Below are positions 38,446 to 63,903 of a stretch of 64,000 nucleotides of DNA, piece after piece (the stretch's first letter is position 1; every line of letters starts with the position of its first letter). The stretch is from Candidatus Omnitrophota bacterium (GTDB taxonomy: Bacteria; Omnitrophota; Gorgyraeia; Zapsychrales; Fredricksoniimonadaceae). Where the stretch lies: NCBI GenBank assembly GCA_044225175.1, contig JBGAJA010000001.1:206114-270113 (forward strand), read 5' to 3'. The translations under genes and the position numbers were made by a program. The notes beneath the pieces are model-generated. The model was not told where the DNA came from, ran no database searches, and saw only the letters and a program-made list of their open reading frames with translations.

Positions 38446-39989
<1,544 letters not shown>

Positions 39990-40180
39990 TATTCTATTAC
40001 AGGATAGAAACGAAAATTTCATCGTCAACGAAATGTTTAAGCATAATAAGTAAATCAAGATCTTCTCTTTGAAGTTCTTGGCTTTCAAAAATTTTAGAAC
40101 TGCTCGTTGAAACAATGAGCGATCATTGTTTCAACGGGTTTGTTTTCCAAGTGGTCAATCCACTGGCTAAGCCGTATAAC

Positions 40181-40254
40181 GGGCCCGTAGCTCAGATGGT
40201 TAGAGCGCGTCCCTGATAAGGACGAGGTCAGTGGTTCGATCCCCCTCGGGCCCA
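40181..40254 (+). tRNA. tRNA-Ile (anticodon GAU)
   Basis: Cloverleaf GGGCCCGTAGCTCAG...CTGATAA... in the 16S–23S spacer. CCA is not encoded. One U·C mismatch in the T-stem. Confidence 0.85.
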
Positions 40255-40264
40255 TTTATTTCGA

Positions 40265-40341
40265 GGGGCCGTAGCTCAGTTTGGTAGAGCGCCTGCTTTG
40301 CAAGCAGGAAGTCAAGAGTTCGATCCTCTTCGGCTCCACCA
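40265..40341 (+). tRNA. tRNA-Ala (anticodon UGC)
   Basis: GGGGCCGTAGCTCAG...TTTGCAA... with the G3:U70 identity pair. CCA is encoded. Confidence 0.9.
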
Positions 40342-40472
40342 TTTTTTATACGGACTAAATGAATGAACAATAGATGTTAAGCATAGATTTGGATCTCGTT
40401 ACTGACGAGATCGACATGCTCTTTGACAATTATGAAATATAGGGTAATACAATTTCGAGTAGTTTTCGTGTT

Positions 40473-43431
<2,959 letters not shown>

Positions 43432-43488
43432 TATATTAAAATTTGCTTGGGTTGAATTATCCTATATTTCATAATTGTCGTTATCTAT

Positions 43489-43603
43489 TGCGGTAACATT
43501 ACTTGTGGGGCAACACCCGTTCCCTTTCCGAATACGGAAGTTAAGTCCACAGAGGTCGATGGTACTGTAGTCGCAAGGCTATGGGAGAGTAGAACGTTAC
43601 CGC
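43489..43603 (+). rRNA. rrf: 5S ribosomal RNA
   Basis: Terminal helix GCGGTAAC.../...GTTACCGC. Conserved CCGAATACGGAAGTTAAG and GAGAGTAGAACG. Confidence 0.9.
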
Positions 43604-43611
43604 TTTTCTTT

Positions 43612-43650
43612 AAAGCCCTGTAACCCATAAGGTTACAGGGCTTTTTTATT
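43612..43650 (+). terminator. Rho-independent terminator of the rRNA operon
   Basis: aagccctgtaacc-cataa-ggttacagggctt followed by ttttttatttc. Confidence 0.85.
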
Positions 43651-43661
43651 TCTTTCCTTGT

Positions 43662-43690
43662 TTGACAGCGTTATAGCATAATGTTATATT
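43662..43690 (+). promoter_or_regulatory. σ70-like promoter of the pilin operon (TTGACA, 17 nt spacer, TATATT)
   Basis: ttgacagcgttatagcataatgttatatt, 19 nt upstream of the first pilin gene start codon at 43709. RBS aggag present. Confidence 0.6.
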
Positions 43691-43708
43691 TGAATTAGGA
43701 GACTATTT

Positions 43709-44140
43709 ATGAAATCAAAAAATCATGGTTTTACATTGATTGAAATCAGTATTGTTTTAATCATTTTAGGTGCAATTGCTGTATTGGCATTTCCTGGTCT
43801 TTTTGCTCAAATTGAAAGACACCGAGGACAGGAGGCTCTTCAGTCTCTCAATCTTATTAAAAGTTTAGTTGAATCTTGTGGTTTACAAAATAGTGGGGAT
43901 TATACCAAATGTGATACTTGGGATGAAATTGGTATGACTAATCCATCAGGAACCAATTTCAAATATTCAGATCCATCCGATAGTACTGGGAATTCGATAA
44001 ATATTAAAGCTAACTTTGGAACTAATGTGTATAAACTCCAAGCAATTAGAATAACTTCAGGCGATACTATAACTATAGATAGGCCTGATACTGGTATTGC
44101 TACTTGTGCAGGCGTTGGGGCATATCGTGAGTTATGTTAG
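43709..44140 (+). CDS. Prepilin-type N-terminal cleavage/methylation domain protein
   Basis: HGFTLIEISIVLIILGAIAVLAF. Confidence 0.75.
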   Translation: MKSKNHGFTLIEISIVLIILGAIAVLAFPGLFAQIERHRGQEALQSLNLIKSLVESCGLQNSGDYTKCDTWDEIGMTNPSGTNFKYSDPSDSTGNSINIKANFGTNVYKLQAIRITSGDTITIDRPDTGIATCAGVGAYRELC

Positions 44141-44151
44141 AGAGGTATAGA

Positions 44152-44631
44152 ATGAATAAAAAAAGTGGATTTACTTTAATAGAGTTAGGTATTGTAGCTA
44201 TTATAGTAGGAATTTTGGTTTTAGTTGGCATACCCAATATGATCAAAGGCGTTAATCGTGGATATGCTCAAGATGGCCTTCGAAACTTAATGGCGATTTA
44301 TGCAGCGGAACAAAATTATGCACAAAATAATGATGGGAAACATTTTCCTGCTGTTGGAACGGCCCATTGTGATTTAAATTGTATGAATGGAGGCTTAAGT
44401 TTAAATATTGTTCAAAGCGGTTCCAATTTATATGACTGTAGTAACGCAGCAGAAGTAGTTACCTGTACGTTGAGTAATACCCCCGCTGCTTTTAAATTAG
44501 TATCCGTTTCTAATCTATCAATATCAGTTAATTCAAACCCCGTTTATTGTTTTAACGATCTTCCTAACAGTACCTACAATCCTTGTTGTCCTCTAACAGC
44601 TGGCCATGTCCCAGGGGATGCTTGTCCATAA
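44152..44631 (+). CDS. Prepilin-type protein, Cys-rich C-terminus
   Basis: SGFTLIELGIVAIIVGILVLVGIP. C-terminus ...NPCCPLTAGHVPGDACP. Start trimmed to MNKKSGF. Confidence 0.75.
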   Translation: MNKKSGFTLIELGIVAIIVGILVLVGIPNMIKGVNRGYAQDGLRNLMAIYAAEQNYAQNNDGKHFPAVGTAHCDLNCMNGGLSLNIVQSGSNLYDCSNAAEVVTCTLSNTPAAFKLVSVSNLSISVNSNPVYCFNDLPNSTYNPCCPLTAGHVPGDACP

Positions 44632-44633
44632 TT

Positions 44634-45137
44634 ATGAAAAATAAAGCAGCATTTACTATTATTGAAATTTTTCTCGTAATTGTAATATTAGGAGTCTTAG
44701 CTTGTTTTGCAGTTCCCAATTATATTTTAGGTTTAAGTCGAACATATGCTCGAAATGCAGTAGATAACTTAGTATCTATTCAATCTGCTCAATTAATTTA
44801 TATTCAAGCTAATGGCTCTTATTATGAGTCTAGTTATCAATCCAATAATCCTGCTGTTGATGATTCTCCTACTCTAAACAGTAGATTAAATTTAAACATT
44901 ACGCCCAATGGTGGGACTAAATATTATTGTGATTCTACTCCTGCTTGCCATGCTGTTCGTACAGATACGGGGGCTTTTGATATTCAATTAAATTTAAGAA
45001 TGCCAATTGTCAGTGTAGGAAGGCCTTTAATTTATTGTGATCCTGCAATTGCACCTGGTGGTCCTAGTCCTAATAATAATCCATGTTGTTTAAATACAAA
45101 AGGATATGCAAAAGACGCTCTCTGTCCAGCATTTTAA
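44634..45137 (+). CDS. Prepilin-type protein, paralog of the preceding gene
   Basis: AAFTIIEIFLVIVILGVLACFAVP. C-terminus ...NPCCLNTKGYAKDALCPAF shares the PCC...DAxCP motif with the previous gene. Confidence 0.75.
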   Translation: MKNKAAFTIIEIFLVIVILGVLACFAVPNYILGLSRTYARNAVDNLVSIQSAQLIYIQANGSYYESSYQSNNPAVDDSPTLNSRLNLNITPNGGTKYYCDSTPACHAVRTDTGAFDIQLNLRMPIVSVGRPLIYCDPAIAPGGPSPNNNPCCLNTKGYAKDALCPAF

Positions 45138-45140
45138 TCT

Positions 45141-45497
45141 ATGATTAAGAAAAACAATAAAGGCATCACTCTTTTAGAAGCATTTTTAGCTGCTTTTATT
45201 TTTATTATTTCTGTCTCTGCAATTTTTGTTACGATGACAAATTTACGTAAGCCTGCAGTGAATAATGAACAAGCCGTAGCGGCTGCTTTGACATTAAGTA
45301 ATATTCTAGAAGATTTACGTTCAAAGGTAGATAGCCGTGATTACGATACTGGAAAGCTTTCTATAAGACCAGAGGATAATCCTCATAAAATAAGTCTGGG
45401 GACTCAATACAAGATAGCCTATAACGTAACTGCAGACCCTTCTGGGTCAGGGGCTAGAAAAGTCGATGCCAGTATATTCTGGAATGATACCCTTTAA
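45141..45497 (+). CDS. Prepilin-like minor pilin or pseudopilin
   Basis: KGITLLEAFLAAFIFIISVSAIFV. Confidence 0.6.
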   Translation: MIKKNNKGITLLEAFLAAFIFIISVSAIFVTMTNLRKPAVNNEQAVAAALTLSNILEDLRSKVDSRDYDTGKLSIRPEDNPHKISLGTQYKIAYNVTADPSGSGARKVDASIFWNDTL

Positions 45498-45498
45498 T

Positions 45499-46275
45499 AT
45501 GAAAATTAATCAAATTCGATCTTTTACCATTATAGAAATTTTAGTCGCAAGTATTGTAGTGAGTATTATTTTACTAGGAGTTATTACGACGAGTATTTCG
45601 TTAAGTAATAGTGCCAGGTTTTCTTCTGGAAATTATTTTGTCACTCAAAGTACTCAAAGTACTTTAAATCATATACTCAAAAACGCAGCGTTAGCCATTG
45701 GTACGCCATCTAATCCTGGTTTTGTAGGAATGAATACTTTGTGGGATAAAGATGACTTAGGCAATCCTATAAAAGCTCCTGATGGAACTGTTTTGGAAGG
45801 AAATCCACCTTTGTCAGACCTTGTTGGTTCTGGAAAGCCATCCACTTTTTGTATCCATCAAAACCTATCTCTAAATGGAAGTTATAATATTCTAAATTCA
45901 AATGCATACCATCGATGGCTATGTTATACGTTAGATACAGCAACAAAGAATATTTATTGGTGTGCTAGAGCTTATGATGTTAATAATCCTCCTGGAACAG
46001 CTGGGTATCTTTCTAGTCAACCTGCTAATATAAATCATACAGGGGGGGCTCCCTGTTCTACAACAGATAATTTATTGGGAACGGCGACAAATATTTCTAC
46101 TTCTTTATCGATTAATGCCGCTGGAAGTTCTCAAAAGGTAGAATTTCAGGTAACTATTGATAATTGCCTTGACCCCAATGGTAATGTATTTGGCCAATGC
46201 GTGGCAGGCGGTTCAAATAATCCGTATGTTCAAAAAACAGGAACAATTTCTCCGTCAGGTCATGTGGGAGGTTAA
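45499..46275 (+). CDS. Prepilin-like protein with a large C-terminal domain
   Basis: RSFTIIEILVASIVVSIILLGVITT (Ser at −1). Start trimmed to MKINQIRSF. Confidence 0.55.
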   Translation: MKINQIRSFTIIEILVASIVVSIILLGVITTSISLSNSARFSSGNYFVTQSTQSTLNHILKNAALAIGTPSNPGFVGMNTLWDKDDLGNPIKAPDGTVLEGNPPLSDLVGSGKPSTFCIHQNLSLNGSYNILNSNAYHRWLCYTLDTATKNIYWCARAYDVNNPPGTAGYLSSQPANINHTGGAPCSTTDNLLGTATNISTSLSINAAGSSQKVEFQVTIDNCLDPNGNVFGQCVAGGSNNPYVQKTGTISPSGHVGG

Positions 46276-46322: not shown

Positions 46323-47600
46323 ATGTTAGATCTCAAATTTATTCGTGAAAATATAGATAAAGTTAAATCTAGTTTGGAAGCCAAAAGGGTTCAAGTTGAT
46401 CTCAACCGTCTTATGAAATTAGATGGGGACCGACGTGCTCTTATCATTGAATTAGATGATTTGAAAGCCCAAAAAAATATAGCCAATGAAGAGATTGGCC
46501 GCATGGTAAGAGAGAAACTAGATGCCAAAATGAAAATTGCTTCCATGAAGACCATAGCTACTCAAATTGATACTATGGATCCCGCCATTAAAAAAATTGA
46601 AGAAGAAATTAATCAGATTCTGTTAACAATTCCTAACATTGCTCATATTTCTGTTCCAGTTGGTGGGCCAGGCCTTAACAAAGAAATAAGAAAGTGGGGA
46701 GAAACTCCTCAATTTAATTTTAAGCCAAAGACGCACATTGAACTAGCTGAAGATTTAGATATTATCGATTTTAAGCGAGGAACAAAGTTAAGTGGTTCTA
46801 ATTTTATTCTTTACAAAGATCTAGGGGCTCGACTAGAGAGGGCTTTATATAATTTTATGCTTGATTTACATACTTCCAAGCATGGTTATCGAGAAATGTC
46901 GCCACCTGTTTTAGTTAATACAGCATCAATGACAGGAACTGGTCAATTACCTAAAATGAAAGAAGATATGTATCATGTCCAAACAGATGATTTGTATTTG
47001 ATTCCAACAGCAGAAGTGCCTGTCACCAATATTCATCGTGATGAAAGTTTAAATGAGGAAGATTTGCCAATTTATTATACTGCTTACACTCCTTGTTTTC
47101 GTAGAGAAGCAGGTTCTTATGGAAAAGATACTAGAGGATTGGTGAGGATACATCAGTTTGATAAGGTAGAGTTGGTTAAATTTGTCAAGCCTGAAAATTC
47201 TTATGATGAATTAGAGAAATTGTTACAAAATGCCACTGTTGTTTTTGAGCTTTTGGGAATTCCTTATCGTGTTCTTATGCTAGCTAGCGGAGATATGAGT
47301 TTTGCAGCTGCCAAGTGTTACGATATTGAGGTTTATGCGGCTGGTCTTGAAAAATGGTTAGAAGCTTCAAGTTGTTCAAATTTTGAAGATTTTCAAGCTC
47401 GTAGAGCTAACATTGCCTACAAAGGTAAGGATGGAAAGAAAAAAGGTTTTGTCCATACCCTAAACGGATCTGGTGTTGCCCTTCCTCGTACAATGATTGC
47501 TATCCTAGAGAACTATCAAACTAAAGAAGGCAATGTAATCATTCCTGAAGTTCTTCGCCCTTATATGGGTGGTTTGGATATTATTACAAAATATAAATAA
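46323..47600 (+). CDS. serS: Seryl-tRNA synthetase
   Basis: N-terminal MLDLKFIREN... coiled-coil arm and class II aaRS core motifs (FRREAGS...). 425 aa. Confidence 0.9.
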   Translation: MLDLKFIRENIDKVKSSLEAKRVQVDLNRLMKLDGDRRALIIELDDLKAQKNIANEEIGRMVREKLDAKMKIASMKTIATQIDTMDPAIKKIEEEINQILLTIPNIAHISVPVGGPGLNKEIRKWGETPQFNFKPKTHIELAEDLDIIDFKRGTKLSGSNFILYKDLGARLERALYNFMLDLHTSKHGYREMSPPVLVNTASMTGTGQLPKMKEDMYHVQTDDLYLIPTAEVPVTNIHRDESLNEEDLPIYYTAYTPCFRREAGSYGKDTRGLVRIHQFDKVELVKFVKPENSYDELEKLLQNATVVFELLGIPYRVLMLASGDMSFAAAKCYDIEVYAAGLEKWLEASSCSNFEDFQARRANIAYKGKDGKKKGFVHTLNGSGVALPRTMIAILENYQTKEGNVIIPEVLRPYMGGLDIITKYK

Positions 47601-47637
47601 AATTCTTTTGGAGCATCGACCAAACTTCTTGGTATTT

Positions 47638-47726
47638 GGAGAGGTGGCAGAGTGGTCGAATGCGGCGGTCTCGAAAACCGTTGTCCGGCGTAAGTCGGAT
47701 CCAGGGTTCAAATCCCTGCCTCTCCG
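47638..47726 (+). tRNA. tRNA-Ser (anticodon CGA)
   Basis: GGAGAGG acceptor stem, long variable arm, anticodon loop CTCGAAA, T-arm CAGGGTTCAAATCCCTG. CCA is not encoded. Confidence 0.85.
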
Positions 47727-47734
47727 TTGAAAGA

Positions 47735-48382
47735 CATATGGGACATATACGAAAAATTGGGGAAGTGTATTATATTGAATTTTTTGCTAGAGGATTGATG
47801 TATTCTCAGGTTGCAGGTCTAACTGAAGAAGGAGCCCGAGAGATGCTTGAAAAGATTGAGAGTAAGATCTCAGCAGGGGAAGCTTTAACGATTGTCAGGC
47901 AAATTAATTTAGATGTTTTTTTTGAGAGGTATCTAGAAGATGTTCATGATCAATTTTCTTCAAAAAGTATTGAGCGTTTTTCTTCGGCCTGGAGAAGTCT
48001 ATTGAATTTTCTAAACAAAAATTATCCGGAAGTTTATCAGTTGTCTCAAATCACGCCATTTTTAATTGAGTCGTATAAAGCCTATTTAATTCCATTAGAA
48101 ACGCCTAAGATTGTCAATTTCACTCTGCTTTTGTTAAGGGAAATTTTTGAGTACGGTATTAAGATTGGGTTTTTAAACGACAATCCATCCTTACATGTCA
48201 CATTGTTGAAAATGACACCATCACCTTTAAGAAAGGGTGCCCGTTCCCAGATAGCAAAAGAATTATTAACTAACGGAGTAATATTAGGAAAAATTTATCA
48301 AGTTCTAAAATTGAAAGATGTGGCTCAGGTCATGTTTTGGTCAAATTTTATTCCCCTGAAAAGGGAAGATGTGTATAATTAA
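47735..48382 (+). pseudogene. Truncated tyrosine-recombinase (phage-type integrase): N-terminal arm-binding and SAM-like core-binding domains only
   Basis: GEVYYIEFFARGLMYSQVAGLTEEGAREMLEKIESKISAGE is the AP2-like integrase N-terminal domain, and ...SQITPFLIESYKAYL the core-binding domain. The ORF ends at the start of the catalytic domain, so no RHRY catalytic residues are present. It sits 8 nt after the tRNA-Ser. Confidence 0.6.
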
Positions 48383-48403
48383 CGGCTTGTAACGCAATTT
48401 TGG

Positions 48404-48438
48404 GAGAGGTGGCAGAGTGGTCGAATGCGGCGGTCTTG
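48404..48438 (+). repeat. Direct repeat of the tRNA-Ser 5' half (att-like remnant)
   Basis: ggagaggtggcagagtggtcgaatgcggcggtct is identical to tRNA-Ser positions 1–35 and diverges at the anticodon loop. Confidence 0.7.
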
Positions 48439-48599
48439 AAATCCGAAAAAGCCCATTTTCTCAACCTCTTGAAATTGCTAAAAAGACCGCAGTTGTCGTC
48501 GACAAAATTGATTTTTAGGCCTTTGGATACTTTTGGATTTTTTAAGTATTTTTAATCTAAAACCGTCACGATTTCGACACCAAAAAAGGAGGTCAAAAA

Positions 48600-49010
48600 A
48601 TGACTTTCCAACCCATCAAAAGATTCATCACCCAATTTAATGACAAAACTTTTGCTACTCTATGGTTAGAGTCATTATTATTTTCTGTACTTTTTGGAAT
48701 AGGGTTTCATTCTTTGCTGGTATCTGTTTTGATGTTCGTAGGCTTAACATGGCTTATGAATAAGTGGAAAGGGACGCTCTATGCGATTCTCACGTTAAGT
48801 TTTCTGTGGGGATTTATTGTTTTCTGTATTTGTTATAGTGCTGGTGGATGGGTGTGGGGTCTTGGTTTAGGAGCGATAGTTTTTTATAAAGGAGTAAGAG
48901 TACATTTCCGTGAGTTAAAAGAGTCTTTGGATAATTTTAATTTTTTCACTTCTAATAATATTAGAGAGTGGCGACAAGATAATTATTGGGGTAGGCAGAA
49001 TTTGAATTAA
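48600..49010 (+). CDS. Small integral membrane protein (about 4 transmembrane helices)
   Basis: Strong RBS aaaaaggaggt. Hydrophobic segments. No domain recognised. Confidence 0.5.
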   Translation: MTFQPIKRFITQFNDKTFATLWLESLLFSVLFGIGFHSLLVSVLMFVGLTWLMNKWKGTLYAILTLSFLWGFIVFCICYSAGGWVWGLGLGAIVFYKGVRVHFRELKESLDNFNFFTSNNIREWRQDNYWGRQNLN

Positions 49011-49117
49011 TCATGGGACTCAATTTTTTATACCCTATGTGATTTAATAAATCACAGGAGGGTTCTTGTTTGAAGTAGAAAATAGTATTCAACACAATTG
49101 ACTTAAATGAGGATTAT

Positions 49118-50293
49118 ATGAGTGAGAATCAAGACATTGCTTTTAGTGCAGATTTAAGACCTGGTGGGAAAGAGGAATTGTTTGAGAATTTGAATGATTT
49201 TCAAATATGGCTAAATGTCGAACGAGAATTTTGGAACTGGATGGAAGTTCTGAGACAGAAGAATCCTAATGCTCACCACTACATTAATAGCTACTATCAG
49301 AGGTTAAATCAAATACAGGCTCATTTAGAAGCTACTCTTAATAATACAAATATTCCTCATCATCGGGGTCAATTAATTCAGGTTCTACAGAATTATTATC
49401 AAAAAAATCAATTAATTCACTCCTCACAACCCCGAGCAAAGTTTCTCAAAGAAATATTTGAAAAAGATCCAGCCCACGCTGTTTATACTTTGAAATTTTT
49501 TATTGATCGTAGATTTAATCAAGATACACCAGGAGAAATTGAAGGTTCTTTCTCTGCACTATTGTTTGAACATAATGTTAAGGATAGTAATAAAGGAGAA
49601 ACAAAAGCCCTGGAAGAACTTCGTGATTTGTGGCAAATACATCTAAATAATTCTAAGACAGATTTAACAAATATAACAAACGATTATGCGAACACTCTAA
49701 TAAAGCTTCAAGATCAAAAGAATGAAGAGAAGAAAAAATTTGAAGAATTATTAGGTAAAGCAGAAAAAGAACATGAGCAACGTATTGAAAAAGTGAAACA
49801 ACGCTTTAAAGAAATTGAAGACCTCTATGAGAAAAAATTAGCGCTTCATGCTTCAATTAAATATTGGGGAGAGAAAGCGAAAAGTCATTTTAGATGGTCG
49901 ATAGGGTTTACTATAGCTACTCTCGGGGGGTTTTATATTGCAGGGAATTGGTTATATAACATTATGAGATCAGTGATAGGAAATGCAACAATCAAAGACC
50001 TAGAAGTATGGAAAATAGGGTTGCTGTTAATTGCAGCGACAATAGGTGTTTGGATAACACGGGTTTTAATAAGATTGTTGTTAAGTAATGTTCATTTATG
50101 GAATGATGCCAATGAGCGAAGGACAATGATTCAAACATACTTGGCCTTACATAATGAAGGCAAAATGCCTGACCAATCACGAGAATTGATTCTTCAGGCT
50201 TTGTTTCGTCCTACAAGCACGGGTATAGTAAAGGATGATGCAGCTCCTCCTTTTATGGCTGAATGGTTAAAGAGAACAACAGGGGCCGACTAA
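49118..50293 (+). CDS. Hypothetical protein: N-terminal helical/coiled-coil domain, two transmembrane helices, short C-terminal tail
   Basis: 391 aa. Transmembrane helices near residues 255–275 and 290–315. Convergent with the TIR gene. Confidence 0.5.
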   Translation: MSENQDIAFSADLRPGGKEELFENLNDFQIWLNVEREFWNWMEVLRQKNPNAHHYINSYYQRLNQIQAHLEATLNNTNIPHHRGQLIQVLQNYYQKNQLIHSSQPRAKFLKEIFEKDPAHAVYTLKFFIDRRFNQDTPGEIEGSFSALLFEHNVKDSNKGETKALEELRDLWQIHLNNSKTDLTNITNDYANTLIKLQDQKNEEKKKFEELLGKAEKEHEQRIEKVKQRFKEIEDLYEKKLALHASIKYWGEKAKSHFRWSIGFTIATLGGFYIAGNWLYNIMRSVIGNATIKDLEVWKIGLLLIAATIGVWITRVLIRLLLSNVHLWNDANERRTMIQTYLALHNEGKMPDQSRELILQALFRPTSTGIVKDDAAPPFMAEWLKRTTGAD

Positions 50294-50342
50294 TGACTTT
50301 AAGGAATACAAGAATTTTATAGAAAATAAGCAATTTTGAGAA

Positions 50343-51695
50343 TTAAAAATGCTGCAATGAACTAAAAGGAGTGCTTCCTTCTCGAGGGGCATTTCCGTTT
50401 ATATAAACTTTCCACAAAACCACGTATTGAGCCCTATTCTGCCATTTATCAAAATTTAAAGAGTAAATGAGGTTGGATATTCCGTTTTCTCCAAATATTC
50501 GTATTTTCTTGCCTGGTAAAAGGAATTTATTAAATTCTTTTTTACCGCTATCTGGTAGAGCGGAATAGTCAAATATAAGATTTAAATAGCCAGGGTTATC
50601 CCGTGATTCACTCGACGTTAAATGAGGGTATTCCCATTTTTTCTTTTCCATATATTCACTAGGAAATTGAAGTTCAATAACAATATTTTTAAATTCTTCT
50701 TTTGTCTTATTTTCGATTTCAAGAAGGAAAGAATATTCGTGTAACTCTGAGGTTTGTTTCAAGGTTTTATAGGTTACTTCTACGTTGGCAGATGATGCGA
50801 TTGGAGAATATCCTTCTTTTAATTTGAGGAGTTCTGTTAATTCGTCTGGTTGCATAGTGTAGGTATTATTTGGAATTCCAAATTGTTCACATATTTTCTT
50901 ACAACTACTTAAAAGATCGGTTGAATCGAATAGTGTTATCCCTTGTGTAACTAAATTTAAAGGTGATCCAAATTCAGTTGGTGATATATTGGTATACATA
51001 GGATAGATTTTAAAACCTCGACCCCAAACGGCAGCGGATTCCCACCATACCCAAGAAGACTCCTGAGCCAATCGAGAGCAAATAGGAATTATAGCCTCTG
51101 CATTTTTTAAATTGGTTTCTAACATAATTTTTAGAGGGTCATCGCCAGGTTGTATACTACGTCTTGCGATAAATATCTCTGCCTTATCTTGAGTAAATTT
51201 TCTAAGTATTTTTTTTATGAAATCAGCTAAAGCGAGTTCTTCACTGGCATAACTGATAAAGATTATAGGGAGTTGTTGAATGGGGCACCTCTCTTTTATA
51301 TATCTAATTTTTTCTTCTGCAATTTCTTTTGTTTGTGAGGTTACACGTATTAGGCCCTCTTTCTTAAAGGGTGTATAAATGAAGGTGCATCTTGGGCTAT
51401 TATTCGTTGTTCCACTTATGCAAATATCATAAGTTAATTCTTGTTTGTATGCTTGAATAAGTTCAGCCAGGCTACTTACGGTGTGTTTAATGCCATCTGC
51501 GCTGTGCCAATAAGCAGTGATCCCACCAATAACATGTGGGTAACCAGGGAAGCCTTGAAACTCTTTACCCCAAGTTTGATCAAAAATTTCAAATAGTTGA
51601 TCTGAGGTTAGAATTTCGGGGGAAAATCCAATATAAGATAAGGTTACGCTGCTTTTCATTTTTGATAATATACTGCGCAAGACTTCAAAGGTCAA
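50343..51695 (-). CDS. TIR-domain protein with unknown N- and C-terminal domains (candidate defence or NADase effector)
   Basis: The central PIIFISYASEELALADF...AIIPICSRLAQESSWVWWESAAVW matches the TIR βA (FISY) and SxW...E motifs. The tracked start is TTG; an alternative ATG lies at 51659. Confidence 0.6.
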   Translation of the reverse strand: MTFEVLRSILSKMKSSVTLSYIGFSPEILTSDQLFEIFDQTWGKEFQGFPGYPHVIGGITAYWHSADGIKHTVSSLAELIQAYKQELTYDICISGTTNNSPRCTFIYTPFKKEGLIRVTSQTKEIAEEKIRYIKERCPIQQLPIIFISYASEELALADFIKKILRKFTQDKAEIFIARRSIQPGDDPLKIMLETNLKNAEAIIPICSRLAQESSWVWWESAAVWGRGFKIYPMYTNISPTEFGSPLNLVTQGITLFDSTDLLSSCKKICEQFGIPNNTYTMQPDELTELLKLKEGYSPIASSANVEVTYKTLKQTSELHEYSFLLEIENKTKEEFKNIVIELQFPSEYMEKKKWEYPHLTSSESRDNPGYLNLIFDYSALPDSGKKEFNKFLLPGKKIRIFGENGISNLIYSLNFDKWQNRAQYVVLWKVYINGNAPREGSTPFSSLQHF

Positions 51696-51795
51696 TGTAC
51701 CATTAGTAAACGAAGCGAACTTTATTTTTTACTACAAACAAACTACAAAAAGAACTACATCCGTGTAGTTGTTTTGTAGTAAATGTCTTTCCTAA

Positions 51796-51916
51796 CTCTC
51801 CCATTTGCAAGGGGTTTTTGGGGAAAAGCACCCAAAACTGTTCCCGACCCCACTCCCTCAACCATAGGTTAAGCGGAGGGACTGGGGTCGGGAACTACCA
51901 ATTGCAAATGGGAGAG
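51796..51916. repeat. Nested inverted-repeat structured element (perfect 15-bp outer inverted repeat plus 20-bp inner hairpin)
   Basis: Outer ctctcccatttgcaa / ttgcaaatgggagag. Inner gttcccgaccccactccctc–loop–gagggactggggtcgggaac. An additional ttttggg/cccaaaa hairpin lies between. Confidence 0.6.
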
Positions 51917-51987
51917 AGTAGAAGGGTGAGAAGATGTTGTATACTTGAGAAGGTGGTTAAGGAAGAATTTAAAAGGGAGGAATTATT

Positions 51988-52509
51988 ATGGAAACAGTAG
52001 GATTTTTTAACGGTGTATTAGGTGATGTATTTAAAACAGTAAGGCAAAGAATAGGAATTAAAGCTGATATTGATTTAGAAAAGATGAGGTTGATTGCAGA
52101 TAAAAAAGAAACACGTATTAAGGAATTAAAAGAGGCTCATAATATTTTGTTTGATCTGTCTAAGGAGTTCTCTCAGGACACTACTTATATCTTTTTTTCA
52201 TCAAAAATGAGCAGAGACCAATACAATAATCGATACCTAGATAAATGGACTGATCTCAATCGATTTATGGCCATAATAGCTACATACTTTCCCCAACTAA
52301 ATGATTTGGCGGAAAAGCTGGCTGGGAAGATAAATATTTATTGGGGTCAACAGCAGAATTTGTTATACCAAAAAGAAAAAGGTAGCGATCAGGTGGTTTG
52401 TATGGAAGTATTAAATAATGTTACTCAAGCAACGTTCAATATTGAAGAAACCATAAATTCTCTTAAGGTAGGTCTCAATAAAATATTAAATGAATTGAAA
52501 GAGGATTAG
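51988..52509 (+). CDS. Hypothetical protein
   Basis: 173 aa. RBS aaaagggagg. No domain recognised. Confidence 0.45.
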   Translation: METVGFFNGVLGDVFKTVRQRIGIKADIDLEKMRLIADKKETRIKELKEAHNILFDLSKEFSQDTTYIFFSSKMSRDQYNNRYLDKWTDLNRFMAIIATYFPQLNDLAEKLAGKINIYWGQQQNLLYQKEKGSDQVVCMEVLNNVTQATFNIEETINSLKVGLNKILNELKED

Positions 52510-52766
52510 TTTTAAATCTTTACCAACCGTTTTAATCAAATCCGCAGGTGGTTTGTCTCTGGTGCAGACAGGTTAGGCACATTCATTAGTTCAAGAGTTC
52601 GTATTCGTACGCTCCCGCATCCTTTCGATTGTTTTTTCGATTCTGTCATACGTATCAAGGACTACGCCCCACATAAAGCCTGTGAGGCTTGCAAGTGCTC
52701 CGCTCCGCTTCGCATCCTTGACACGTATGCCTTTAGATAATTAAAAAAATCGAAAGGAAACTCACT

Positions 52767-53285
52767 ATGCAAAACACACAAACAACACCAAAAATCTATG
52801 TAGCTTGTCTGGCAGCTTACAATAATGGTTTCTTACATGGTAAATGGATTGAAGCCAATCAGGAAGCAGAAGCTATCTATAAAGAGATACAAGAAATGTT
52901 AGCCAAAAGTCCTATAGCTGGTGCAGAAGAATGGGCTATCCATGATTATGAAGGCTTCATGGGTTTACAGTTATCAGAGTCTGAGGATATTGTTACTGTA
53001 GCAAGCATAGCGGTTATGTTAGAAAAGCATGGAGAAGCTTGGGCATTGTTTACGGAACATGATGGCATAGAATACGCCACAGAAGAGAGATTTGAAGAAG
53101 CGTATGAAGGTGAGTGGGATTCAGAAGAAGATTTTGCTGAAAATTTGGCTAGTGAGACTATGGAAATTCCGAAGCATTTAGAATTTTACATAGATTACGG
53201 GAAACTAGCCTATGATCTTTTCATTAACGATTATTTTTCTGCGGAAGGAAGTAGCCATAAGGTTCATGTATTTAGAAGGCTTTAA
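52767..53285 (+). CDS. ardA: Antirestriction protein ArdA
   Basis: KIYVACLAAYNNGFLHGKWIE...EEWAIHDYEGF and C-terminal LEFYIDYGKLAYDL are collinear with Tn916-type ArdA. Strongly acidic. Confidence 0.8.
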   Translation: MQNTQTTPKIYVACLAAYNNGFLHGKWIEANQEAEAIYKEIQEMLAKSPIAGAEEWAIHDYEGFMGLQLSESEDIVTVASIAVMLEKHGEAWALFTEHDGIEYATEERFEEAYEGEWDSEEDFAENLASETMEIPKHLEFYIDYGKLAYDLFINDYFSAEGSSHKVHVFRRL

Positions 53286-53386
53286 GCTATACGACCTAGA
53301 CATGTCGTAAAACTGTCTATTTTTTATTGAATTAGAAGTGGTAGTAAAAAATTTGACAGCAACATATAAAAGAGTATACTTAAAAC

Positions 53387-53767
53387 ATGAATAAGATTTT
53401 TACATCTTTTCTTGTTACATCCTTTCTTGCGACTTCTTTTCTTTGTTCTTGCGTAGGTAGTGCAGAGACTTTTTTAGATTCAGATGTTCATCATGATGAA
53501 TCAGACTGTCATTCCCATCAAGATAAAAGCGATCATTCATCTAAAAAAGATTGTGATTGCTGTGCGACTAAAATAATCAATGCCGATATTACTGCTAAAA
53601 ATGTTTTGGCAGTGCCTGGCAGTCTTTCTCAACAATCGTTTATTTTTAGTAGTACTTTTTTGAATAGAAATATTGATCTAAAGCAAAATCTTTCTTATGC
53701 CCATGGCCCTCCAGGGTCTGTAAGTCTAGTTCCTCTGTATATCCAATTCCACAGCCTTCGTATTTAA
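53387..53767 (+). CDS. Secreted or lipoprotein-like Cys/His/Asp-rich protein (putative metal-binding)
   Basis: Signal peptide ...FLCSC. HHDESDCHSHQDKSDHSSKKDCDCC cluster. Confidence 0.5.
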   Translation: MNKIFTSFLVTSFLATSFLCSCVGSAETFLDSDVHHDESDCHSHQDKSDHSSKKDCDCCATKIINADITAKNVLAVPGSLSQQSFIFSSTFLNRNIDLKQNLSYAHGPPGSVSLVPLYIQFHSLRI

Positions 53768-53840
53768 TCTTTTCTTCTTAAAATAGTGTCCTTTTCTATA
53801 AAGGGACGCAGTGTCTTTTTTTATTTTTAAGGAGGAAATT

Positions 53841-54221
53841 ATGAAATTATTATTTACTGTTATTTACATATTTTTGATTGGCACTGTTTCTGTTAATGCT
53901 TCTAGTAAAGTTAAAGAACACATGGCCATACATAAAATTCAATTTAATTCTAAATCTGATCGCATTAAATCATTTCATATGGAAGATGACGGCCAATTTA
54001 TTCATTTAAGCGGAATAATATCTAAAAGGCTGGGAGTGCCTTTTAGTAATTACTCCATTAAGACTGTTTGTGTTGATCAGAACGATAAAATTATTGATAA
54101 AGACAGCACACGTATAAGCGGAAGTTCAAGTTTTCTGCGTGGAAGAACAACGGCAAATTTTTATACAAGGATAAAGGATCATCAAGAAATAACAAAATGT
54201 GACATTAATGTTAGCGGTTAA
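53841..54221 (+). CDS. Secreted hypothetical protein
   Basis: RBS aaggagg. Signal peptide MKLLFTVIYIFLIGTVSVNA. Start trimmed from the ORF-tracker ORF. Confidence 0.45.
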   Translation: MKLLFTVIYIFLIGTVSVNASSKVKEHMAIHKIQFNSKSDRIKSFHMEDDGQFIHLSGIISKRLGVPFSNYSIKTVCVDQNDKIIDKDSTRISGSSSFLRGRTTANFYTRIKDHQEITKCDINVSG

Positions 54222-54235
54222 AAGGAGAAATCATT

Positions 54236-55630
54236 ATGCGAAATAAAGTTTTGATTGCCATCTGGTTATTAGCGCCAGGATTGGTATGGGCAGGAGACAA
54301 GGAGTCGGTATCTTCAGGGAATATGAAGAATTTATCTGAAGTGCAGCACATCGTTAAAGATAGAAGTGCCTACTCTATTAAAGAACAACCTTTAAGCGTG
54401 AAGGGGCCCCTAGATGAAGAGCAGGCCATTAGTTTATCTTTAAACAATAATTTAGTGCTTAAAGCATTATTTGAGAGATACGCAGTAGATAGGGCTGATA
54501 TCATAGGAGAAAGTTTATTAAAAAATCCTAAATTTTCTTATTCATCTAGAAAATCCAATGAGCCAGACACCAAAAGGGATACGGAATGGCAAATTAAAGT
54601 TGATGCTTTGGATTTATTATTGTGGCCTTTAAAGAAACAAGCACAACATCGTCAGATTAAATCCGCTGAATTTATGGTGGCTTCCAAGGTTTTGGATTTT
54701 ATCAAAGAGGTAAAAGTAAATTTTTATCATCTACAAGAAGCGCAGGCAGTAATGGATTCTTATGAAGATGATATGCAAGCCCAGCAGACCATCTTAGATT
54801 TAGCCAAAGGAATGTATGGAGCAGGAAACAGCAATATTCTTCAATGGCAAAAAGCACAGGTCGTATTTCATGAATCAAAATTAGGCTACTTAGATGCGAA
54901 ACGTGATTTAGCTATAGCTAGAGAAAATTTAAACTTGCTCTTAGGTTTACCTAAGGGGGAAGATGATTGGAAAATAAATAGCCAATTTAAAGATATTGCT
55001 TTTAGTGAACCTGAATTAACAAAACTTAATCAGATGGCACAAGAGAACCGTCTGGAAATTATTATTGCTAAAGCCCAGATTGGTATTTTAAGCAATAAGC
55101 TGACCATGGCTCGGGCTGGACTTTTGCCGTCATTCGAAGTCGGTTATGATCAAGAACGTGAAGCTAGTGGCAATAAACTCAAAGGCATGGTGTTGGAAAC
55201 GGACGTACCAATTTTTAATTTTAATCAAGCAGGAATGTTACGGTATGAATCACTTTTAAGCGAATCAAAGATTAACGTACCAGCAGTAGAAGCCTTGGTA
55301 ACTAAAGAAGTTAATGTGGCTTATCAGGAGTTAATTACAGCAAGGGCTAAAGTTGAAAATCTTCAAGAAGTCTTACCGCTCTATCAGCAAATGACTAGAG
55401 AGACGCTGTATCATTACAATTTTATGTTAAAAGATGTTTTTTCTGTGTTAGAAGCCAAAAGTGTACAGTTAAAAGCAAAGTCAGAATTTGCTAAAGCTAT
55501 GAGTGAATATTGGCAGGCACGGACTGAATTAGAACATGCGGTGGGGCATACTTTGTCATATACACCCTTAGTTCAAAAAACAGTTGAAGAACAAAAGACT
55601 AACGAAGCTGAACATCATCATGGAGGCTAA
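54236..55630 (+). CDS. Outer-membrane efflux protein (TolC/CusC family) with His-rich C-terminus
   Basis: Signal peptide. Two-repeat OEP-like helical/β pattern. Ends ...EAEHHHGG. Confidence 0.65.
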   Translation: MRNKVLIAIWLLAPGLVWAGDKESVSSGNMKNLSEVQHIVKDRSAYSIKEQPLSVKGPLDEEQAISLSLNNNLVLKALFERYAVDRADIIGESLLKNPKFSYSSRKSNEPDTKRDTEWQIKVDALDLLLWPLKKQAQHRQIKSAEFMVASKVLDFIKEVKVNFYHLQEAQAVMDSYEDDMQAQQTILDLAKGMYGAGNSNILQWQKAQVVFHESKLGYLDAKRDLAIARENLNLLLGLPKGEDDWKINSQFKDIAFSEPELTKLNQMAQENRLEIIIAKAQIGILSNKLTMARAGLLPSFEVGYDQEREASGNKLKGMVLETDVPIFNFNQAGMLRYESLLSESKINVPAVEALVTKEVNVAYQELITARAKVENLQEVLPLYQQMTRETLYHYNFMLKDVFSVLEAKSVQLKAKSEFAKAMSEYWQARTELEHAVGHTLSYTPLVQKTVEEQKTNEAEHHHGG

Positions 55631-55631
55631 T

Positions 55632-56834
55632 ATGTTTAAGTGTTTAATAATGTTTTTAATGCTTATAGTTTCATCAAGTAGTACATCATGGGCGCAGCCA
55701 TTGTCCTATACTCCTGTCATCACGCCTAATGGCAGTACAATGCCGTGGACATTGGCCAAGGATGGAGTTAAAGAGTTTCATATCACCGTTGGAGCATGTC
55801 AACATGAAATAGCACCTGGTATGACTATCAATGCCTGGTGTTATAACGGTCAAACGCCAGGGCCAACGATTGAAGTCGTTGAAGGAGATAGAGTAAGAAT
55901 TTTTGTTAAGAATGAACTACAAGAAGGTACGGCTGTTCATTGGCATGGAGTATTCTTGCCCAACGGTATGGATGGTGTTTCAGGTTTGACACAAAAATCC
56001 ATAGAACCAGGACAGACGTTCAAATATGAATTTACCTTAAAACAGCACGGAACGTTTATGTATCATTCCCACGGCGATGAAATGACACAAATGGGCTTAG
56101 GTACTATGGGCTTCTTTATTGTTCATGCTAAAGATGAACCCAAGGTTGATCGTGATTTTGCAATTTTCTTAAATGAATGGTTTGTTGAGCCAGGCACAAA
56201 AACACCCAATCCGAATATTATGACGGACTTTAATATTTTTACTTTCAATAGCCGAGCATTTCCTGGAACAGCTCCTTTGGTCGCTAAAACTGGAGATAGG
56301 ATAAGAATTCGTATAGGTAATGTTGGTCAAGAATCTCACCCTATTCATTTGCATGGGTATGCTTTTAAAGTAGTCGCAACTGATGGGGGAGATATTCCAC
56401 AATCAGCCCAATATCCAGAAACAACGGTTGTAACCTTTCCTGGTCAGACACGCACAGTTGAATTTGTCGCCAATGCTCCTGGTGATTGGGCACTGCATTG
56501 TCATCGTAGACATCATCCGATGAATGCCATGGGGCATGATGCAGCCAATGTACTAGGGGTTAATCAAGATAGCGTTAAAGATACTATCCGTAAACTTGTT
56601 CCTGGGTATATGCCGATGGGAGAAAACGGTATGGATGAGATGAACTACATGCAAATGAAAGGCCCAGCAAATACTCTGCCTATGATGGGTGGTCAAGGTC
56701 AATTTGGCCCCACAGGCATGGGAGGCATGTTCACAGTCTTTAAAGTTAGGGATAATCTTAAAGATTATGATAACCCTGGAGAATATCCTCATCCAGCGGG
56801 AACAGTTGCAAGTGTAATCGAAGATAAAAAATAA
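55632..56834 (+). CDS. Multicopper oxidase with Met-rich C-terminal region
   Basis: Copper-site motifs HWHG, HPIHLHG, HCHRRHHPMNAMG. C-terminal MPMGENGMDEMNYMQMKG...MMGG. Signal peptide. Start at the ATG after ggagg. Confidence 0.8.
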   Translation: MFKCLIMFLMLIVSSSSTSWAQPLSYTPVITPNGSTMPWTLAKDGVKEFHITVGACQHEIAPGMTINAWCYNGQTPGPTIEVVEGDRVRIFVKNELQEGTAVHWHGVFLPNGMDGVSGLTQKSIEPGQTFKYEFTLKQHGTFMYHSHGDEMTQMGLGTMGFFIVHAKDEPKVDRDFAIFLNEWFVEPGTKTPNPNIMTDFNIFTFNSRAFPGTAPLVAKTGDRIRIRIGNVGQESHPIHLHGYAFKVVATDGGDIPQSAQYPETTVVTFPGQTRTVEFVANAPGDWALHCHRRHHPMNAMGHDAANVLGVNQDSVKDTIRKLVPGYMPMGENGMDEMNYMQMKGPANTLPMMGGQGQFGPTGMGGMFTVFKVRDNLKDYDNPGEYPHPAGTVASVIEDKK

Positions 56835-56859
56835 CAATCATCAAAGAAAGGAAATACGT

Positions 56860-57204
56860 ATGAAAAATAGAACCATAACAATATTAGTTGCAGGTAGTAT
56901 TTTGATGTTAGGAGGCTATTCTTTTGCTCAAGAAGCAGATCATGGCCAGGTTATCAGTGATAAGCAGGCTATGGAAGATATTGCTGCAAAGAAGGCTGTA
57001 GAAGTTGGCAATACAATTTGTCCTGTAAGTAAAGAAGAGATTCCTGCACCGGGTAAAGAAGGCCCAATGGGCGGGGCTATTAAATATGAATACAATGGTA
57101 AGATTTATAATCTATGCTGCAAGATGTGTGTAAAGGATTTTAAAAAAGATCCTGAGAAATATAGCAAAATTGCAGAAGATCAAGCTAAAACTGTCCAGAA
57201 ATAA
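56860..57204 (+). CDS. Periplasmic YHS/TRASH-domain metal-binding protein
   Basis: Signal peptide. ICPVSKEEI...YEYNGKIYNLCCKMCVKDFKKDPEKY matches the YHS pattern. Confidence 0.6.
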   Translation: MKNRTITILVAGSILMLGGYSFAQEADHGQVISDKQAMEDIAAKKAVEVGNTICPVSKEEIPAPGKEGPMGGAIKYEYNGKIYNLCCKMCVKDFKKDPEKYSKIAEDQAKTVQK

Positions 57205-57264
57205 TTGTTAGTTGATTAGCGGGTGGGAAAATTTGATTCCCACTCGCTATCTAAAGGAGAATTT

Positions 57265-57690
57265 ATGTTGGAACAACTGTTTCCCATACATCCCAAGCTT
57301 GTGCATTTTCCTATTGCTTTATTTATGACTGCATTTGCTTTGGATAGTTTAAGCTGGATTTTTCGTAAGGAACATTTACATAACACAGCAATAGTTATTT
57401 ATGTATTTGCGGCGTTATTCACTCCTCTAGTTGTCTGGACAGGGTTGTTTGAGCAACAGAGACTTCATTTGAATCATCCTGTCCTTAATCAACATAAATT
57501 ATACGCTTTTGGGACGATGTGGATTTCTTTAGCTTCATTACCTGTTTTATGGTTTTTGAAAAAGTTTTTTTCTAGAAATTTTAGAATAATATTTACATTG
57601 CTGCTTTTAAGTTTGGCAATACTGGTTACAGTTACAGGGCATTTTGGTGGACGTATGGTTTATGAATATGGAGCAGGAGTACAGAATTAA
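57265..57690 (+). CDS. Membrane protein (DUF2231-like, four transmembrane helices)
   Basis: Hydrophobic helices. Start trimmed to MLEQLF. Confidence 0.45.
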   Translation: MLEQLFPIHPKLVHFPIALFMTAFALDSLSWIFRKEHLHNTAIVIYVFAALFTPLVVWTGLFEQQRLHLNHPVLNQHKLYAFGTMWISLASLPVLWFLKKFFSRNFRIIFTLLLLSLAILVTVTGHFGGRMVYEYGAGVQN

Positions 57691-57710
57691 GATAGACTGA
57701 AATTATTCTC

Positions 57711-57742
57711 TTGACTCTCCACCATACTGGAAGGTGTATAGT
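57711..57742 (+). promoter_or_regulatory. MerR-type promoter: TTGACT, 20 nt spacer, TATAGT, with a GGAAGGT half-site in the spacer
   Basis: ttgactctccaccatactggaaggtgtatagt. The over-long spacer is typical of MerR/CueR-controlled promoters. It sits upstream of the MerR-family gene. Confidence 0.5.
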
Positions 57743-57768
57743 TTTATTAGATAACAAGGGAGATAAAA

Positions 57769-58167
57769 ATGTTTATCGGTGAACTCAGTAAAGAGACAGG
57801 TATTCCAGTTAAGACAATACGGTATTACGAAGAGTTTGGGCTTTTACATAAGCCGAAAAGATCAGTGTCTCAATACCGTATTTATAATCATAAAGACCTT
57901 GAAAAACTTTTATTTATCAAGAAGTCTAAAGATTTGGGGCTAACCTTAGCTGAAATAAAAAAAATCATCAAACGTAGCAGTAGTGGAGTTGAGGCAACGT
58001 GTTGTTTAGTCCATGAAGTTTTTGAAGAAAAAATAGCTGATTGTGAACAAAGAATCAAAGAATTAAAAGAAACTAAGAAGCGCTTAAGCGAACGGCTTCA
58101 CCATTGGATAACAACCAGTGAAGCTAAGAAATTAAAATTTACAATTTGTCCTCAAATTGATAAGTAA
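57769..58167 (+). CDS. MerR-family metal-responsive transcriptional regulator (CueR-like)
   Basis: N-terminal MFIGELSKETGIPVKTIRYYEEFGLL HTH, dimerisation coiled coil, C-terminal Cys-containing tail. Confidence 0.75.
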   Translation: MFIGELSKETGIPVKTIRYYEEFGLLHKPKRSVSQYRIYNHKDLEKLLFIKKSKDLGLTLAEIKKIIKRSSSGVEATCCLVHEVFEEKIADCEQRIKELKETKKRLSERLHHWITTSEAKKLKFTICPQIDK

Positions 58168-58313
58168 GATGGTTCAAATGAGGCTAACAGTATTTAAAAT
58201 TAAGTAGTTTTACTTAGATTTGCGAGTATGTTTCCGTACAGTATTTTTTTGTCTGTAGTGTTATTTTAGTTAAATAAAAATTTAAGGGTAATCTTTTATA
58301 AGGAGGTGGTTTT

Positions 58314-59113: not shown

Positions 59114-59157
59114 CGGGAATTATCTAAAGATTGTAAAACTTGGAAAGGAGGATTGAA

Positions 59158-59820: not shown

Positions 59821-59886
59821 TAAGAAAATGATAATGTATAATAGACAACAAATGAAGCTGTTGTTAACTAGAGAAAGGTAAAGTTT

Positions 59887-60309: not shown

Positions 60310-60326
60310 TCAAAGAGGGCTTATTT

Positions 60327-63898: not shown

Positions 63899-63903
63899 GA
63901 CTC

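Follow-up and report, generated by a model that had tools for sequence, protein, structure and literature searches.

How did an intact tRNA-Ser gene, an open reading frame (ORF) resembling part of a tyrosine integrase and a partial copy of a tRNA-Ser 5' half come to lie in direct succession on contig JBGAJA010000001.1 of a Candidatus Omnitrophota bacterium? The three are found in a stretch of 64,000 nt (positions 206,114 to 270,113 of the contig), referred to as the window throughout, and an earlier note on this DNA had taken them for the boundary of a genomic island, with tRNA-Ser(CGA) as integration site, a decaying integrase and an att-like duplicate of the tRNA. In our view, the locus is, with high probability, the junction at the left attachment site of an integrative conjugative element (ICE) that replaces the 5' half of its target, a second tRNA-Ser gene with anticodon UGA, next to a conserved host gene for a pseudo-integrase of 214 aa.

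tRNA genes were called with ARAGORN and Rfam, and protein domains were assigned with Pfam. The window was compared with homologous stretches from genomes and metagenomes (loci numbered with the prefix L), 80 of which were added by a metagenome scan using an alignment of the 214-aa protein family. The coordinates of the features in the window are given in Table 1.

The tRNA-Ser(CGA), the integrase-like ORF and the tRNA 5' copy were all recovered with ARAGORN, Rfam, Pfam and a repeat alignment. In the alignment of 47635-47680 with 48400-48445 (93% identity), the tRNA-derived part of the copy starts at 48403, 20 nt past the ORF stop (21 had been claimed), and the ATG of the ORF at 47738 follows the tRNA's 3' end after 10 nt (8 had been claimed). 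The copy is identical to tRNA-Ser(CGA) for 34 nt and then diverges at the anticodon, as previously noted, its first anticodon base being changed from C to T (TGA); the following GAAA matches again, and identity is lost after 48441. With a 26-nt probe, two copies were found in the window and none in 100 shuffles. Neither ARAGORN nor Rfam called a tRNA in the fragment, which does not make up a complete cloverleaf, and the window holds no other copy of the tRNA 3' half. One half of a split or intron-containing tRNA was considered and rejected, as the window lacks a 3' half and homologues of the adjoining DNA form element ends at other loci.

The window's 43-nt tRNA-Ser 5' sequence is identical in at least 120 genomes from many phyla (61 CGA and 59 UGA among the matches listed), and the identity between the two repeats is therefore ordinary tRNA conservation and no sign of a recent duplication. 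Judged from its sequence, the fragment is what remains of a tRNA-Ser(UGA) gene in its own right, because its anticodon is TGA and an intact tRNA occupies the orthologous position in relatives; it is not an att-like duplicate of tRNA-Ser(CGA), which is the neighbour of the integration target and not the target itself. An intact tRNA-Ser was found at the orthologous position in L001 (UGA, 18 nt past the orthologous stop) and L003 (CGA, 26 nt past the stop), both with serS and the other tRNA-Ser upstream, and in the metagenome loci L132, L145, L146, L157, L167, L177 and L178 (8-30 nt past the stop). The seryl-tRNA synthetase gene serS lies 1-4 kb 5' of the orthologous ORF in L001, L003, L146, L167, L194, L206 and others. 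Relatives thus show the intact tRNA, or the fragment together with the same insertion; a tRNA plus fragment with no insertion, which the earlier note had named as the sign of an ancient tandem duplication, was not what they revealed.

The last codons of the 214-aa ORF contain the hexamer TATAAT. Among dereplicated loci, 16 of the 17 in which a tRNA-Ser begins at most 140 nt downstream have this hexamer, compared to 12 of 31 loci without such a start (Fisher p = 1.8e-4; as the loci are phylogenetically related, this test and all locus counts overstate independence). TATAAT would be the -10 box of the second tRNA-Ser, the promoter of which would overlap the end of the 214-aa gene. A generic promoter scan did not call it, as there is no -35 match, and found no terminator either.

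The junction between the fragment and the DNA to its right recurs in relatives. The sequence CTTGAAA followed by (T/A)CCGAAAAA(A)GCC, then by homologous DNA and a homologue of the 136-aa membrane protein, was found in L134, L151 and L173-175, the resident 214-aa proteins of which are only ~50-53% identical to that of the window, and the same truncation point was found in these loci as well as in L154, L156 and L158. Two pairs of metagenomic contigs from similar, non-identical hosts document site-specific integration: L149 with an intact tRNA-Ser(UGA) and L151 with the junction share their upstream sequence and constitute an empty/occupied pair for the left attachment site (attL), and L146 (empty) and L137 (occupied), both from the same metagenome, constitute a pair for the right attachment site (attR), with L146 having host sequence 5' of the tRNA in question. 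At least 14 orphan 5' fragments of tRNA-Ser were counted in the family loci, and no orphan 3' fragments. The junction is a direct and recurrent product of site-specific recombination, and nothing points to a rearranged event, which the earlier note had also considered; its view that a break at the anticodon loop leaving a 5' rather than a 3' fragment marks a non-standard type of integration is supported.

Attachment sites of the two kinds were observed in separate relatives, attL in L134, L151 and L173-175, and attR in L137 and L212. They are linked by a 25-nt motif, which occurs once in the window (0.02 occurrences expected by chance), once in each of the related left ends, and at the right ends of L137 (5815-5839) and L212 (22370-22394). 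The motif AAACCGTCACNNTTTNGACACCAAA has the same orientation on both att arms at ~120-150 nt from the crossover and is, from its placement, probably an arm-type integrase binding site. In L212, the TraC protein of which is 90% identical to that of the window, and in L011, the region beyond TraC encodes TrbL, TraE, CagX, TrbI, a coupling protein, an HTH_17 excisionase, a small MerR protein and an integrase. The L212 integrase (19676-20764, 362 aa, PF24624 and PF00589) has all catalytic residues and is followed by a gene for a 477-aa protein, the 25-nt motif, 68 nt and the start of a tRNA-Ser. This gene order is repeated in L137, with an integrase (3253-4329) 80% identical and a coupling protein 65% identical to those of L212 (the coupling protein being TraG-D_C, 599 aa, in both); here the motif is followed by 66 nt, an intact tRNA-Ser(UGA) and, 7 nt further, the 214-aa gene. 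No tRNA was called in 15.5 kb of the window element, 16.6 kb of L011 and 22.5 kb of L212, save for the tRNA start at the end of the latter.

We propose the following course of integration. The ancestral order would have been serS, tRNA-Ser, the gene for the non-catalytic integrase-like protein, and a second tRNA-Ser with a promoter overlapping that gene's end. This second tRNA-Ser, with anticodon UGA, would constitute the bacterial attachment site (attB) of an ICE of ~27 kb, the attachment site of which (attP) would be composed, in this order, of the arm motif, a putative promoter region, a tRNA 5' half, the loop, the P' sequence and a second arm motif. The tyrosine integrase of the element (~360 aa), encoded near its far end, would cross over within the anticodon loop CTTGAAA or at its 3' edge. 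As attP would itself carry a tRNA 5' half, the host 5' half would be left at the left junction, stranded at 48403-48441 and fused to element DNA starting with TCCGAAAAAGCC, and at the right junction the element's 5' half would join the host's 3' half to restore a complete tRNA-Ser(UGA). The right end of the window element would accordingly resemble those of L137 and L212.

The genomic-island boundary of the earlier note is thus present, with the ICE beginning at 48442 and its junction recurring in relatives; the island extends rightwards from the fragment, and the segment between tRNA-Ser(CGA) and the fragment is core DNA. That the DNA from 48442 onwards is an ICE is indicated by its type IV secretion genes, with the TrbC pilin and TraC/VirB4 in the window and TrbL, TraE, CagX and TrbI in L011 and L212. 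The TraC protein (P0101) is 100% identical over a 639-aa query from L006, the DNA of which equals the window where the two overlap, and a comparison of TraC with viral contigs returned no relatives. Pfam detected no integrase in 48442-64000; the relatives have one near the right end.

Two independent measures were obtained for the length of the window element. A Logan contig (SRR28480385) of 27,067 nt, of which 14,879 nt were retrieved and agree with the window at 100% identity, begins inside the tRNA fragment, where a k-mer assembler would be expected to break off at a repeat; its length puts its end at window coordinate 75,473. In L212, TrbC and the right-hand tRNA lie 12,742 nt apart, and the same spacing would place the corresponding tRNA of the window element at ~76,344. 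The two estimates lie within 0.9 kb of each other, as expected for a contig that ends at the repeated 5' half on either side. The window element is therefore predicted to be ~27 kb long, with the rebuilt tRNA ~11-12 kb beyond the window end.

Several points weigh against this interpretation. The window element's own right end lies beyond the window, and right ends are known from relatives only. Of these, L212 shows its right-hand tRNA for the first 33 nt only, up to the end of the locus, and L137, the sole fully seen attR, sits at the tRNA-Ser upstream and not downstream of the 214-aa gene. The relatedness of the loci belongs here as well, and host and element do not differ in their guanine-cytosine (GC) content and skew profiles. 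Nor was any relaxase family recognised among the element's genes. Finally, the function of the 214-aa protein is wholly inferred. Concerning the relaxase, a conserved protein of 252-257 aa without a Pfam match is encoded immediately 5' of TrbC in the window (62878-63642), L011 (8966-9739) and L212 (8976-9734); this protein, or one of two large upstream ORFs of L212 (1145 and 1794 aa), may have that role.

Among the alternatives for the junction, the one that survives best, while still being quite unlikely, is a short-core integration that disrupts the tRNA: attP would share just ~10 bp with the target, the host tRNA-Ser(UGA) would be destroyed, and a replacement tRNA would be provided by the element or from elsewhere. 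The window by itself would allow this, as the left end of the element matches the tRNA for no more than 0-4 nt past the loop and the right end of the element is unseen, and there is a precedent in the tRNA-dependent lysogeny of Cluster K4/L mycobacteriophages (PMC10865867), with which the junction visible in the window agrees in not rebuilding the tRNA and in an identity that stops just past the loop. In these phages, however, the tRNA is restored at neither junction, its loss being made good by a tRNA of the phage (PMC10865867), whereas the right ends of L137 and L212 have a tRNA 5' half directly after the arm motif. The tRNA-Ser(UGA) at attR of L137 is intact, the retrieved element DNA contains no tRNA other than the start that ends L212, and an orphan 3' fragment is missing from every locus; tRNA-dependent integration was thus not what the relatives showed.

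It is very unlikely that tRNA-Ser(UGA) was cut by an ordinary deletion or rearrangement, for example by a loss of its 3' half together with an adjacent canonical integrase. Such a course is suggested by L192, where a homologue of the 136-aa protein is encoded 2.3 kb past an intact tRNA-Ser(UGA) and a canonical integrase, such that the window could be a deletion derivative of a similar arrangement; but the L192 protein is just 36% identical and the 25-nt motif is absent from this locus, and the identical breakpoint with homologous adjoining DNA was found in at least four host lineages, one of which has an empty-site counterpart. A decayed island extending from tRNA-Ser(CGA) to the repeat, with the tRNA and an att-like duplicate as its ends, which the reading in the earlier note would imply, is scarcely credible: it accounts for an integrase-like ORF right after an intact tRNA and for the direct repeat that follows, but the anticodon of the fragment is TGA and not CGA, orthologous loci have an intact second tRNA-Ser, the family of the ORF is conserved in length and under selection, the 43-mer recurs unchanged in many phyla, and a 5' fragment downstream of its tRNA gene (tDNA) cannot arise by integration (PMC4383910).

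The proposed 5'-half replacement is of a kind already known. In the Islander collection, 159 of 3,919 islands have a 5' tDNA fragment, and a 5' fragment downstream of an intact tDNA is rejected there as one that integration cannot yield (PMC4383910). The present element would agree with these 5'-fragment islands in being a tyrosine-integrase element in a tRNA gene with an anticodon-centred crossover, and, in the relatives, in having an intact tDNA at one end and a fragment of the same orientation at the other, with the 5' fragment upstream. Tandem arrays occur as well (L158). It differs in its Omnitrophota host and its tRNA-Ser(UGA) target, in that the element must supply the tRNA promoter, in that the window shows the fragment end only, and in the integrase gene, which in the relatives lies near the end with the regenerated tRNA and is transcribed toward it. 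With canonical tRNA integrators (P4-like islands, ICEs such as ICEclc, anticodon-loop integrases of the 'A' sublocation) it would share a crossover at the anticodon loop, flanked by the symmetric anticodon stem, as well as a heterobivalent integrase, arm-type repeats on both attP arms and an HTH_17 excisionase next to the integrase gene. These canonical elements carry the 3' part of the tRNA and leave a 3' fragment at their far end, and the present element is their mirror image.

The tRNA-Ser(UGA) site is a hot spot with serial use. Other, unrelated insertions are joined at the same nucleotide after CTTGAAA in L158 (5009-5047 and 6762-6800), L154 (6749) and L156 (6460), the joined sequences being GGCAACAAG..., GGTGTGCG... 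and TGCGTGGAT...; two tRNA-Ser(UGA) 5' halves are stacked in L158, and an intact tRNA is located 1.4-1.9 kb beyond the junction in L154 and L156. In one lineage, an MNT-HEPN toxin-antitoxin pair precedes the intact tRNA-Ser(UGA) (L154 7586-9456, L156 7625-8502, L192 8524-10509), and in L154 and L192 this tRNA is followed by a canonical, catalytically complete integrase of 353-361 aa; one tRNA-Ser(UGA) appears to be used from both sides by different types of element. A different breakpoint is seen in L150 (6657-6673) and L210 (3764-3780), where the tRNA-Ser 5' fragment breaks off after 17 nt, within the D loop and not the anticodon loop, with an intact tRNA-Ser(UGA) 770 nt past it.

A hairpin of 50-60 nt, GGAGAGGTGGGTCGA...CACAACACCTCTCC, was observed between the 214-aa gene, or the insertion, and the intact tRNA-Ser in L165 (2010-2061), L147 and L148 (~20 nt past the stop), L153, L162, L137 and L140, L149 (~4480-4530) and L151 (~8500-8550). 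Its termini resemble the acceptor stem of tRNA-Ser, its folding energy is about -22 kcal/mol with z-scores of -3 to -4 in three of four variants, and its inner stem has compensatory changes; it matched no Rfam family. The hairpin may represent a pseudo-tRNA with an internal deletion, or else a leader structure.

The 214-aa gene that precedes the target is not the decaying remnant of an island integrase for which it had been taken, but a member of a length-conserved host family located outside the element. Its sole Pfam match is the core-binding domain Phage_int_SAM_5 (PF13102; E 1.8e-5, above the gathering score), and the catalytic domain PF00589 was not matched. Homologues numbered more than 70 in a large protein collection, at 45-65% identity and 100% query coverage, and were all of 213-217 aa; few had a source name, and those that did were Candidatus Omnitrophica metagenome-assembled genomes. 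More distant homologues have 300-360 aa and contain PF00589. In the alignment, the short form corresponds to the long form (~330 aa) minus ~125 internal residues of the catalytic domain, with the two N-terminal domains and the last ~50 residues retained. The earlier description of arm-binding and core-binding domains thus stands, except that these are not all there is: the ~50 C-terminal residues align with the final helices of integrase catalytic domains.

Compared to two bona fide integrases, the short form is devoid of Arg I, the beta-hairpin Lys and the His-x-x-Arg motif; the family has Leu or Phe at the His II position and Trp, Tyr or Phe at the position of the Tyr nucleophile, with Leu and Trp, respectively, in the window's protein. 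The ~330-aa relatives (P0077-P0099), which share the serS/tRNA-Ser neighbourhood (L194, L198, L201, L206), are degenerate as well: nearly all have another residue in place of His I and most in place of His II, about half have lost Arg I and several the Tyr. Catalysis seems, by this alignment, to have been lost before the internal deletion arose. An AlphaFold (AF2) model built with 64 sequences has a predicted local distance difference test (pLDDT) score of 90.6. Its best match in the PDB, obtained with Foldseek, is full-length lambda integrase (1z1b, E 8.6e-5), extending across the three-stranded arm-binding and the helical core-binding domain; at ~15% identity, the 214-aa protein differs from lambda integrase in a catalytic domain cut to ~50 residues and in missing Arg I, Lys, His-x-x-Arg and His/Trp. 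Isolated SAM-like/core-binding structures of integrases (3nrw, 2kob, 2oxo) were also matched, weakly (E 0.007-0.75). Identity to the element integrase is 23% over 155 aa (E 2e-9).

Among 64 family sequences, 26 columns are invariant. The variable truncation, frameshifts and absent conservation of a pseudogene are not a feature of the family; apparent frameshifts occur in a few individual loci (L156, L197, L205, L210). A profile search for the clade among 1.84 billion representatives (E <= 1e-30, clustered at 50% identity) yielded 127 clusters, mostly of 310-350 aa with a minority near 215 aa. An ARAGORN census over 85 family loci (580 kb) found 67 tRNA-Ser genes (35 UGA, 24 CGA, 8 GGA), all on the strand of the family gene, besides just 4 tRNAs of other kinds; on whichever side of the gene, the closest tRNA is always a tRNA-Ser.

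The 214-aa gene is thus a conserved, folded, non-catalytic homologue of integrases, encoded by the host outside the element, and its product is not a recombinase. With a gap of just 10 nt to tRNA-Ser(CGA), and with a reading frame that stays open through that tRNA, the gene is probably co-transcribed with it from a promoter-like site at 47575-47603. The frame in question, listed mechanically as an ORF from TTG 47636, runs across the entire tRNA-Ser(CGA) and in frame into the 214-aa gene. A split integrase of the SSV type, with attP inside the integrase gene, was considered on account of this ORF and rejected: the true ORF starts at 47738, ends 20 nt before the fragment and is conserved in length.

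The protein would be a sequence-specific DNA-binding descendant of an ancient integrase at the tRNA-Ser site, and may act as a DNA-binding protein at the locus today, by analogy to TnsF. This inactivated tyrosine recombinase is the DNA target selector of Tn6022-like Tn7 transposons (PMC10293859). Both proteins are conserved, derived from tyrosine recombinases and deprived of the catalytic pocket, with the DNA-binding domains kept; TnsF is encoded by the transposon, has ~500 aa and zinc fingers, and targets comM (PMC10293859), unlike the 214-aa protein, which is chromosomal, has a lambda-Int-type arm-binding domain together with a core-binding domain and is linked to tRNA-Ser. Tentatively, and with more doubt than confidence, the tRNA-Ser-linked clade might be seen as domesticated, non-catalytic att-site binders that would recognise the tRNA-Ser gene or its flanks and control either the transcription of tRNA-Ser or the access of 5'-half-replacing elements to the hot spot. 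So understood, and with TnsF as the analogue, it might represent a host 'att-site gatekeeper' or a co-opted accessory factor.

It is improbable that the ORF has no protein function and that its DNA is retained as the promoter of the downstream tRNA-Ser. This would be in line with the loss of the catalytic residues and with the TATAAT overlapping the last codons, which tracks the presence of a downstream tRNA. A promoter, however, constrains tens of bases and not 642, and would explain neither the constant length of 213-217 aa at 45-65% identity, the invariant residues and the confident fold, nor the full-length 214-aa genes at loci where no tRNA follows.

As for the surroundings, a complete rRNA operon (16S, tRNA-Ile, tRNA-Ala, 23S, 5S), followed by small genes, is located directly 5' of serS (38446-46275), and the gap between the end of serS and tRNA-Ser(CGA) is 37 nt. 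The last small gene before serS (45466-46275), the only one of these scanned against Pfam, has a weak, sub-threshold match to an N-terminal methylation motif (E 0.0046). Within the element, the DUF6161 gene and the divergent TIR gene at the left end, followed by ArdA, look like defence and anti-defence cargo on a conjugative element. The copper/metal block, taken from 53387 to 62600, also encodes a YHS-like protein and several small proteins rich in His, Met and Cys, has a regulator of the MerR/CueR type, and contains repeated MMGG motifs (59887-60309).

Table 1. Features of the window, with positions in window coordinates.
Feature	Position	Strand	Remarks
serS (seryl-tRNA synthetase), core gene anchoring the neighbourhood	46323-47600	+	Pfam Seryl_tRNA_N and tRNA-synt_2b
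Intact tRNA-Ser(CGA)	47637-47727	+	ARAGORN; Rfam RF00005, 59.3 bits
Gene for 214-aa integrase-like protein, no catalytic centre	47738 (ATG)-48382 (stop)	+	
TATAAT in last codons of 214-aa ORF	48374-48379	+	Putative -10 box of downstream tRNA-Ser
tRNA-Ser(UGA) 5' remnant (acceptor strand, D arm, 5' anticodon-stem strand, loop CTTGAAA); host side of attL	48403-48441	+	
ICE left end, P' arm of attL, starting TCCGAAAAAGCC	48442-48599	+	Homologous DNA after truncated tRNA in L134, L151, L173-175
25-nt arm motif AAACCGTCACGATTTCGACACCAAA (= AAACCGTCACNNTTTNGACACCAAA)	48560-48584	+	~120 nt inside element
ICE body, continuing beyond window end	48600-64000	+	
136-aa membrane protein	48600-49010		
DUF6161 protein	49118-50293		Pfam
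TIR-domain protein, 450 aa	50343-51695	-	Pfam
ArdA antirestriction protein	52767-53285		Pfam
Copper-resistance cargo (OEP, multicopper oxidase, MerR, CopA-type ATPase)	54236-62600		Pfam
254-aa protein	62878-63642		No Pfam match
TrbC/VirB2 pilin	63602-63898		PF04956
TraC/VirB4 start	63904		P0101, 922 aa

The mechanism of integration being of a known kind, the element family, the host phylum, the hot spot and the integrase homologue with a deleted catalytic domain are new variants. The locus illustrates that a tRNA fragment next to an isoacceptor gene that is intact may be misread as an att duplication, and that the anticodon and the geometry of fragment and gene decide the matter. It documents, through left, right and empty sites seen separately, a family of conjugative elements in the little-studied Omnitrophota, which combines copper-resistance and TIR-type defence cargo with the uncommon 5'-half-replacing mode of integration and must therefore bring a tRNA promoter along. 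The tRNA-Ser genes next to serS gather serial insertions, resulting in stacked 5' halves, and the integrase derivative resident at this hot spot, length-conserved throughout the phylum and without a catalytic centre, is a candidate for recombinase domestication.

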